A stretch of DNA of 64,000 bases from Escherichia coli (GTDB lineage Bacteria > Pseudomonadota > Gammaproteobacteria > Enterobacterales > Enterobacteriaceae), in assembly GCF_017348835.2 (NCBI RefSeq), contig NZ_CP071375.1; one strand, 5' to 3'. Each line of letters begins with the position of its first letter. Position 1 is the first letter of the stretch. A program made the position numbers. Shown here one piece after another: positions 20,501-23,500 of the stretch.

Positions 20501-23500
20501 CTTTCTTTATTCATGCTAGCGGGTTTGTGATAATGTCATAGTAGAAAAATCGTGAGCAAAAAGCCCTGAACAATTATTAACTTATTGATTTTTGTGTGTT
20601 GATGTTTTTGGTGATTGATTTTCACGATGATCTATTACTTCTGGTTAAGATTTCTATTTTTATTATGTGTGACTTTATTAATGCGCATCCTGCTTCGTTT
20701 TATCGTGATTTAGAGTTGTATATAGCTTTAGTCATAAAATGATATCACTGGACATATAATAAGGGGGATTATAATTTCTTGGGTTAATTACGCACTATCA
20801 AAAATCGCTCATTCCAGACTTAAATACACGTTTTCTCCTGTTTAGGTTGTGGGCGAAAAAATCGATGAGGAGACGAGGTATAATTTCATTCACAACCCTA
20901 TCACTATCTATTAATAAGCAAAAAACAACGTTCTTTTGTGAAACGACTAACTGAAAATTCAACCCTTCGGGCACGCTGCAGCGAGTTTGTGGGCACTAAC
21001 ATTCGTACAAGCTTCATCTGCCGGGCGAAACGTCAGCTAAATACCTTAAAATAATCGCTTTTTTCTCCGGATTTGATCTCCTCATTTTTACATTCCAACA
21101 TCATTTTATAAACATTCCGCTTGTATTTTTCTTTACCGTAATGATAATCGCTATCACTGTGATTTACTTTTCTTTGCATAGATTGACTCAGAAAAACGTT
21201 TAAGGGTGGGTGGCATGTTTGTTCCGTTTCTCATTATGTTGCGCGAAGGACTTGAAGCCGCGCTGATTGTCAGTTTGATTGCCAGCTATCTTAAGCGTAC
21301 CCAGCGAGGCCGATGGATTGGTGTGATGTGGATTGGCGTGTTGCTTGCTGCTGCGTTGTGTCTGGGCTTGGGTATTTTCATTAACGAAACCACCGGCGAA
21401 TTTCCGCAAAAAGGACAGGAACTGTTTGAAGGTATCGTGGCGGTGATCGCCGTGGTGATCCTTACCTGGATGGTTTTCTGGATGCGCAAAGTGTCGCGCA
21501 ACGTCAAAGTGCAACTGGAGCAGGCAGTCGATAGCGCATTGCAGCGTGGAAATCATCATGGCTGGGCGCTGGTGATGATGGTCTTTTTTGCCGTTGCAAG
21601 GGAAGGGCTGGAGTCGGTCTTTTTCCTGCTGGCAGCATTTCAACAAGATGTCGGGATCTGGCCGCCGCTGAGTGCAATGCTCGGTCTTGCTACTGCCGTG
21701 GTGCTCGGCTTCCTGCTCTACTGGGGCGGTATTCGCCTCAATCTTGGTGCATTTTTTAAATGGACCAGCCTGTTTATTCTCTTCGTCGCCGCAGGGCTGT
21801 CAGCTGGTGCCATTCGCGCATTTCATGAAGCCGGATTGTGGAACCACTTTCAGGAAATCGCCTTCGATATGAGCGAGGTGCTCTCAACTCACTCGCTGTT
21901 TGGCACGCTGATGGAAGGGATTTTTGGCTATCAGGAAGCACCGAGCGTCAGCGAAGTCGCCGTCTGGTTTATTTATCTCATCCCGGCGCTGGTGGCGTTT
22001 GCTCTGCCACCACGTGCAGGGGCGACAGCGTCTCGCTCTGCGTAGCAAATACGACGCAAACTCTTGCTTAGTTACAACATACTTTAAAGGGATAGTCTCG
22101 TCATGACCATTAACTTCCGCCGTAACGCATTGCAGTTGAGCGTGGCTGCGCTGTTCTCTTCTGCTTTTATGGCTAACGCCGCTGATATTCCGCAAGTCAA
22201 AGTGACCGTGACGGATAAACAGTGCGAACCGATGACCATTACGGTTAACGCCGGGAAAACACAGTTCATTATTCAGAACCATAGCCAGAAGGCGCTGGAG
22301 TGGGAGATCCTCAAAGGCGTGATGGTGGTGGAAGAGCGGGAAAATATCGCCCCTGGCTTTAGCCAGAAAATGACGGCGAATTTACAGCCTGGCGAATACG
22401 ATATGACCTGCGGTCTGCTGACTAACCCGAAAGGGAAGTTGATCGTCAAAGGTGAGGCAACGGCGGATGCGGCGCAAAGTGATGCGCTGTTAAGTCTTGG
22501 TGGTGCAATTACTGCATATAAAGCGTATGTCATGGCGGAAACCACGCAGCTGGTGACCGACACCAAAGCCTTTACCGACGCTATTAAAGCAGGCGATATC
22601 GAAAAAGCGAAAGCACTGTATGCGCCGACGCGCCAGCACTATGAGCGCATTGAACCGATTGCTGAACTGTTCTCCGATCTGGATGGCAGCATTGACGCCC
22701 GTGAAGATGATTACGAGCAAAAAGCCGCTGATCCAAAATTCACCGGTTTCCACCGTCTGGAAAAAGCATTGTTTGGCGACAACACCACCAAAGGAATGGA
22801 TCAGTACGCTGAGCAGCTTTATACCGATGTGGTCGATTTGCAAAAACGCATCAGTGAACTGGCTTTCCCACCTTCAAAAGTGGTCGGCGGTGCAGCCGGA
22901 CTGATTGAGGAAGTGGCAGCCAGCAAAATTAGCGGTGAAGAAGATCGCTACAGCCATACCGATCTGTGGGATTTCCAGGCTAACGTTGAAGGCTCGCAGA
23001 AAATTGTTGATTTGCTGCGTCCACAACTGCAAAAAGCCAACCCGGAACTGTTGGCAAAAGTCGATGCCAACTTTAAAAAGGTCGATACCATTCTGGCGAA
23101 ATACCGTACTAAAGACGGTTTTGAAACCTACGACAAATTGACCGATGCCGACCGGAATGCACTGAAAGGACCGATTACTGCGCTGGCGGAAGATCTGGCG
23201 CAACTTCGCGGTGTGCTGGGACTGGATTAAGCGTTATGCAGTATAAAGATGAAAACGGCGTGAATGAACCGTCACGCCGACGTTTACTGAAAGGGATTGG
23301 TGCACTGGCGCTGGCGGGAAGTTGTCCGGTCGCTCATGCACAAAAAACGCAAAGTGCGCCGGGTACGCTTTCACCGGATGCACGCAATGAGAAACAGCCG
23401 TTTTATGGTGAGCATCAGGCAGGGATCCTGACGCCACAACAGGCCGCAATGATGCTGGTGGCGTTTGATGTGCTTGCCAGCGATAAAGCCGATCTTGAGC

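Follow-up and report, generated by a model that had tools for sequence, protein, structure and literature searches.

The stretch of DNA analysed here, referred to below as the window, comprises 64,000 nt from Escherichia coli and carries, in this order, putA, putP, a gene on the minus strand for a hypothetical protein of 447 amino acids (aa), efeU, efeO, efeB, phoH and pgaDCBA. It corresponds to positions 1959503-2023502 of the chromosome of PE164, a pig isolate, with 2 mismatches in 64,000 bases. These two positions, C/T at 10299 in rutB and T/C at 35851 in the gene for an EAL-domain protein, are the only differences between the window and the RefSeq record of PE164.

In a six-frame list of open reading frames (ORFs) the longest frame at efeU encodes 279 aa from a GTG start (21206-22045, plus strand). 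The ATG at 21215, which is preceded at a distance of 8 nt by a Shine-Dalgarno-like AAGGG (21202-21206), yields an EfeU of 276 aa, and the efeU coding sequence thus defined (21215-22045, plus strand) is an unbroken series of 276 codons followed by a TAG stop at 22043-22045. The RefSeq record of PE164 has efeU annotated with the same ATG start and the same coordinates. The protein matches the Pfam family FTR1 (PF03239) with E=2e-88 and 296.9 bits (cut-off 25.3), the alignment extending over EfeU residues 1-275 and positions 1-283 of the 284-position profile, and it also scores above the cut-offs of NCBIfam TIGR00145 (345.5 bits, cut-off 303.8) and of the NCBIfam EfeU equivalog NF041756 (328.1 bits, cut-off 255). 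These results confirm both the coordinates of efeU and its assignment to the family. An earlier note on this DNA had described an intact 276-aa permease of the FTR1 family at this position, and the ORF list, the sequence itself and the Pfam and NCBIfam scores bear this out. As locus, operon, length and motifs all match, we regard the protein on sequence grounds as EfeU in the strict sense. The gene is present in 5,417 of 5,426 complete E. coli genomes.

EfeU, also called YcdN, is described as an inner-membrane permease of the OFeT family with seven helices and REXXE motifs, homologous to yeast Ftr1p (PMC9174327). A motif search located two such motifs in the window protein, which we compared with a close set of 36 Enterobacterales orthologues and a distant set of 101 relatives with 33-55% identity (137 sequences in total). 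The first motif, R10-E-G-L-E14 (21242-21256, plus strand), lies in the first hydrophobic segment; R10, E11 and E14 are invariant in the 36 orthologues, and in the distant relatives R10 and E14 are again invariant while position 11 is E in 100 sequences. The second motif, R129-E-G-L-E133 (21599-21613, plus strand), is likewise invariant in the 36 orthologues. In the distant set residue 129 is either R or K, and E130 and E133 occur in 100 of 101 and 101 of 101 sequences, respectively. A Kyte-Doolittle scan with a 19-residue window and a threshold of 1.6 gave six hydrophobic stretches at about residues 1-24, 32-60, 67-94, 146-173, 177-204 and 242-266; the expected fourth helix (about residues 117-140), which has the charged REGLE inside, stayed below the threshold. 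A search for a solved structure of any sequence relative of EfeU found none. With Ftr1p of Saccharomyces cerevisiae, the founder of the FTR1/OFeT group, the window protein shares the Pfam family, matched over its full length, and Ftr1p is likewise described as a seven-helix permease with REXXE motifs (PMC9174327). The two systems differ in their partners, which is the multicopper oxidase Fet3p in yeast, whereas in bacteria they are the periplasmic EfeO, with a cupredoxin and an M75 domain, and the haem peroxidase EfeB.

Both bacterial partners are encoded directly downstream. Starting 57 nt after efeU, efeO (22103-23230, plus strand) encodes a full-length protein of 375 aa with cupredoxin and M75/imelysin domains (Pfam Cupredoxin_1 and Peptidase_M75), which passes the cut-off of the NCBIfam EfeO equivalog with 772.8 bits and matches the solved E. 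coli EfeO, 7wgu, with E=3.7e-230. Only 5 nt further on, efeB (23236-24507, plus strand) encodes a DyP-type haem peroxidase/deferrochelatase of 423 aa (Pfam Dyp_perox_N and Dyp_perox_C), also full length and above the equivalog cut-off (TIGR01412, 618.4 bits), with a twin-arginine motif, SRRRLLK, at residues 13-19 and with matches to the solved YcdB/EfeB structures 2y4f and 3o72. EfeO differs from its K-12 counterpart in one residue and EfeB in two. The intergenic gaps of 57 nt and 5 nt are compatible with a single operon. All parts expected of the tripartite EfeUOB system were thus found, namely the order efeU-efeO-efeB, the domains of EfeO and EfeB, the Tat signal and intact reading frames for all three genes.

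The region between efeB and phoH contains a tandem array with a unit of 100 nt (24418-25317), detected as seven overlapping 300-nt copies at exact 100-nt spacing, and six of its units score at or above the Rfam gathering threshold of naRNA4/REP325 (RF02564; 24597-25174). K-12, O157:H7 and strain 536 have only about 1.3 units and a spacer of about 620 nt, as against 1,220 nt in the window; among the strains compared, the expansion in copy number is specific to the lineage of the window. A single further naRNA4/REP unit lies near cbpM (134-212, minus strand, 82.5 bits), and a borderline match to the small RNA ES036 is found at 6096-6138 on the minus strand (38.5 bits, gathering score 37.6). The start of phoH (25452-26516, plus strand) is annotated inconsistently, with 354 aa from 25452 as the longest ORF and in MG1655 versus 262 aa from 25728 in the PGAP annotation of PE164, and the NCBIfam PhoH equivalog covers just residues 101-353 of the 354-aa form. 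Antisense to the 3' end of phoH there is a match to Ysr251 (RF02855; 26318-26511, minus strand) with 188 bits at a gathering score of 100, which may mirror only the conservation of the phoH coding sequence.

Next to dgcT begins a large accessory region, which spans 34789-59000 and beyond. It encodes an EAL-domain phosphodiesterase, a chaperone-usher fimbrial operon, a two-partner secretion pair of the filamentous-haemagglutinin/ShlB type and a fatty-acid/polyketide-like cluster (acpS, SDR, FabZ, ACP, two ketosynthases, an ABC transporter and a LolA-like protein). The fimbrial usher gene (41459-43981, minus strand) is annotated in PE164 as a pseudogene with an internal stop. Only 417 of 5,426 complete genomes have this region, most of them O157:H7; it presumably resembles O-island 47 of EDL933.

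Upstream of efeU, alignment of the window with K-12, O157:H7 and 536 revealed a promoter-proximal region of 130 bp (21085-21214, plus strand) that is nearly identical in all four. It includes a candidate Fur-box-like site, CGTAATGATAATCGCTATC (21137-21155, plus strand), with 15 of 19 matches to the consensus GATAATGATAATCATTATC; the site is identical in K-12, O157:H7 and 536 and is the only one with at most four mismatches to the 19-nt consensus on either strand of the 64-kb window, in which no site with three or fewer mismatches was found. A simple consensus scan of 21000-21214 gave no strong sigma-70 match for efeU. The strains diverge upstream of about 21085, that is beyond about -130 of efeU, and the spacer between putP and efeU measures 2,680 nt in the window, 542 nt in K-12 and 219 nt in strain 536. 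The insert responsible (18535-21090; 2.1 kb relative to K-12) holds the 447-aa ORF and a stretch of low GC content (0.33-0.37 at 20200-21000). Among the 5,426 complete genomes 645 have it, for instance those of O157:H7 Sakai, O55:H7 and O145; K-12 and 536 do not.

The 447-aa orphan gene (18682-20025, minus strand) lies between putP and efeU and is divergent from efeU. Its homologues were found only in E. coli, in seven clusters of at least 84% identity, all of them unnamed or labelled 'hypothetical', and none of the Pfam and NCBIfam profiles searched reached its threshold. There is a sub-threshold match to PipB2_N, the N-terminal domain of a type III effector (E=0.011, 16 bits, cut-off 27), and the C-terminal half is predicted to consist of three four-helix units in tandem, all of which end with an ARNYL/ARSYL-like motif. 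With a mean pLDDT of 33.6, an AlphaFold model based on an alignment of five sequences was unusable.

The earlier note had further mentioned that efeU is frameshifted in K-12, and the alignment, the translation, the RefSeq labels and the literature all confirm that this lesion is real. The efeU interval is 830 nt long in MG1655 (b4490) and in MC4100, compared with 831 nt in the window, and RefSeq labels the two K-12 genes 'pseudogene' and 'frameshifted', respectively. Alignment of the window gene with efeU of MG1655 and MC4100 contains a sole gap, one G that is missing in K-12 at ORF nt 106/107. In the window this site is a GG pair (21320-21321, plus strand; ORF nt 106-107) in codon 36, GGT, which encodes Gly36, where K-12 has a single G. 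Translation of the K-12 interval accordingly begins MFVPF, runs to RGRWIV and ends at a TGA stop at codon 37, with many later stops, while the window frame reads through; the K-12 lesion is thus placed at 21320-21321 and is absent from the window. Gly36 is kept in 34 of 36 Enterobacterales orthologues of EfeU, and the orthologues in other genera are full length. Apart from the missing base the K-12 locus is much like that of the window: efeU is 98.1% identical at the nucleotide level once the base is restored, the flanking genes are shared, and both loci have intact efeO and efeB. It differs in the absence of the 2.1-kb insert between putP and efeU and in having about 1.3 instead of about 7 copies of the 100-nt repeat unit downstream of efeB.

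We counted both states of the gene with short probes spanning the site. A 73-nt probe across the deletion, representing the exact K-12 allele, matched 368 of 5,415 complete E. coli records; the 60 carriers listed among the 368 are without exception K-12 or laboratory derivatives, among them MG1655, DH5alpha, C600, J53, DH1 and NCM3722. The corresponding 74-nt probe from the window, representing the intact allele, has an exact match in 3,366 complete E. coli records. Near-exact matches listed for this probe extend over 74 nt with one mismatch and no gap, the exception being a K-12 hybrid with 73 nt. About 93% of sequenced E. coli, this strain included, are without the K-12 lesion in efeU. Because of these counts across complete genomes, intact efeU is the norm in E. 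coli and the K-12 frameshift a derived exception. The same observations speak to the reverse reading, in which the K-12 form would be ancestral and the intact frame of the window an unusual state, produced by reversion or by an error of assembly. Nothing was found in its favour: the K-12 allele is confined to 368 of 5,415 records, with laboratory derivatives making up 60 of the 60 listed, the exact intact 74-nt stretch is common to 3,366 records, orthologues of other genera are full length and have Gly36, and in an independent complete genome, that of PE164, all 64,000 bases of the window are found again with just 2 mismatches. Allele counts and the conservation of Gly36 refute an ancestral K-12 form, and we assign this reading a negligible probability.

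PMC4746246, PMC7549933 and PMC2808357 state, with reference to Grosse 2006 and Cao 2007, that efeU of K-12 MG1655 is inactivated by a frameshift, leaving the system cryptic, whereas EfeUOB is functional in O157:H7 and in Nissle 1917; repair of efeU in K-12 is stated there to improve growth under iron restriction (Grosse 2006 Mol Microbiol 62:120; Cao 2007). The window resembles the loci of O157:H7 and Nissle 1917 in the position of the operon between putP and phoH and in the order efeU-efeO-efeB (Grosse 2006; Cao 2007). Its EfeU and that of O157:H7 both have 276 aa and both REGLE motifs, and 272 of 276 residues are identical; O157:H7 also has the same 130-bp promoter-proximal region, the same Fur-box-like site and the same upstream insert with the 447-aa ORF. 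They differ in four substitutions that are private to the lineage of the window.

The allele found in the window is rare, as only one of 5,417 complete-genome records, PE164, is at least 99% identical to it over 1,011 nt, the next best reaching 98.3%. The exact protein is nevertheless present on 101 public contigs. A polarised comparison with O157:H7, 536 and repaired K-12 assigns 11 private nucleotide changes to this branch, 7 synonymous and 4 nonsynonymous, the latter being E67G (21414), G153S (G>A, 21671), A196S (21800) and A221E (21876), all on the plus strand. A196S and A221E sit at positions that are variable in the family, both among the 36 orthologues and among the 101 distant relatives. 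Position 67 lies in a loop block that precedes the third hydrophobic segment. The 36 close orthologues all have E or Q there, and in the 101 distant relatives the residue is Q in 42, A in 24, E in 8 and G in 7; since it varies in this way, E67G is probably tolerated. The pattern of substitution gives no sign that efeU is decaying on the PE164 branch, because synonymous private changes outnumber nonsynonymous ones, and the persistence of the allele also argues against decay. We further considered whether efeU is an imported, unusually divergent segment. This was ruled out by its identity to K-12, 98.1%, which is on par with that of its neighbours (putP, 97.3%; efeO, 98.5%; efeB, 98.6%; phoH, 98.4%).

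Taken together, the efeU of the window appears to be an ordinary wild-type E. coli gene, the first of efeUOB, and a functional EfeUOB system is most likely, with a probability that we put at about 85%. This reading is favoured because efeO and efeB are full length, the REGLE motifs are present, and the 130 bp upstream with their Fur-box-like site are near-identical to those of O157:H7. Transport activity and regulation of this particular EfeUOB we infer from the literature. Two other readings accept the intact genes and place a defect elsewhere. The operon might be silent or differently regulated, as everything upstream of -130 has been replaced by the insert with its divergent 447-aa gene; the length of the spacer between putP and efeU and the low GC content of 20200-21000 would agree with this. 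The proximal 130 bp and the Fur-box-like site have been kept, however, and the same insert is present in O157:H7, where EfeUOB has been shown to be functional and regulated (Cao 2007, as cited in the articles above). Since O157:H7 combines this insert with a functional system, silencing of efeUOB by the insert is unlikely, and we consider altered regulation as a whole very improbable.

Alternatively, the frame might be intact and the permease itself impaired, a natural hypomorph in which G153S, possibly together with E67G, disturbs the packing of helices or the path of iron. G153S is the sole feature of the PE164-lineage protein that could lower its activity. A glycine occupies position 153 in all 36 orthologues and in 98 of the 101 distant relatives, the other three having A (two) or P (one). 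This makes 134 of 137 sequences with G, and none of the 137 has Ser; moreover, all four residues that differ from O157:H7 and repaired K-12 changed on the lineage's own branch, and PE164 is the only one of 5,417 complete genomes with the allele. Against impairment, the exchange of Gly for Ser is one small residue for another, synonymous changes prevail on the branch (7 versus 4), the exact protein persists on its 101 contigs, no substitution affects the REXXE motifs or the remaining invariant residues, and G at position 67 is tolerated in distant relatives. We therefore hold an impaired permease to be improbable, though less so than altered regulation, and the related proposal that G153S with E67G weakens or retunes iron transport in the PE164 lineage is equally doubtful. 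An ordinary, functional EfeUOB remains our preferred reading.

If that reading holds, EfeU would reside in the inner membrane as a permease of the FTR1/OFeT type, whose two REXXE motifs are thought to bind iron and pass it through the membrane, and EfeO, with its cupredoxin and M75 domains, and EfeB, the Tat-exported DyP haem peroxidase, would act in the periplasm. As summarised in PMC9174327, the proposed role of EfeO, a cupredoxin-M75 protein of the periplasm, is the binding and oxidation of Fe2+, and EfeB is a Tat-exported haem peroxidase of the DyP type. Uptake of ferrous iron by EfeUOB is reported to be stimulated by low pH (PMC9174327, PMC3852070), and its regulation is ascribed to Fur, low pH and CpxAR, with repression at high pH via CpxR (PMC3852070). 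By analogy, the system of the window would import ferrous iron chiefly when the pH is low and iron is limiting, and it would be repressed by Fur and, at high pH, by CpxAR. In the K-12 laboratory lineage the loss of one G at codon 36 cuts EfeU short at codon 37 and leaves the system cryptic.

The contrast between an intact efeU in wild E. coli and a frameshift confined to K-12 is already known, having been published in 2006-2007 (Grosse; Cao). An intact efeU in this strain is unremarkable because it is the rule in E. coli, with K-12 as the exception; annotation pipelines already label the gene correctly, and the importance of the finding beyond correct annotation is small. The sole new detail is the rare G153S/E67G allele, which is relevant to work on structure and function of EfeU. 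Should the EfeU of PE164 prove to be altered, unlikely as we consider this, it would represent, besides the K-12 frameshift, another and subtler way in which E. coli can lose or modify EfeUOB. In practice, K-12 is a poor reference for the efeU locus, and an intact efeUOB would provide E. coli with an extra route of ferrous-iron uptake at low pH.
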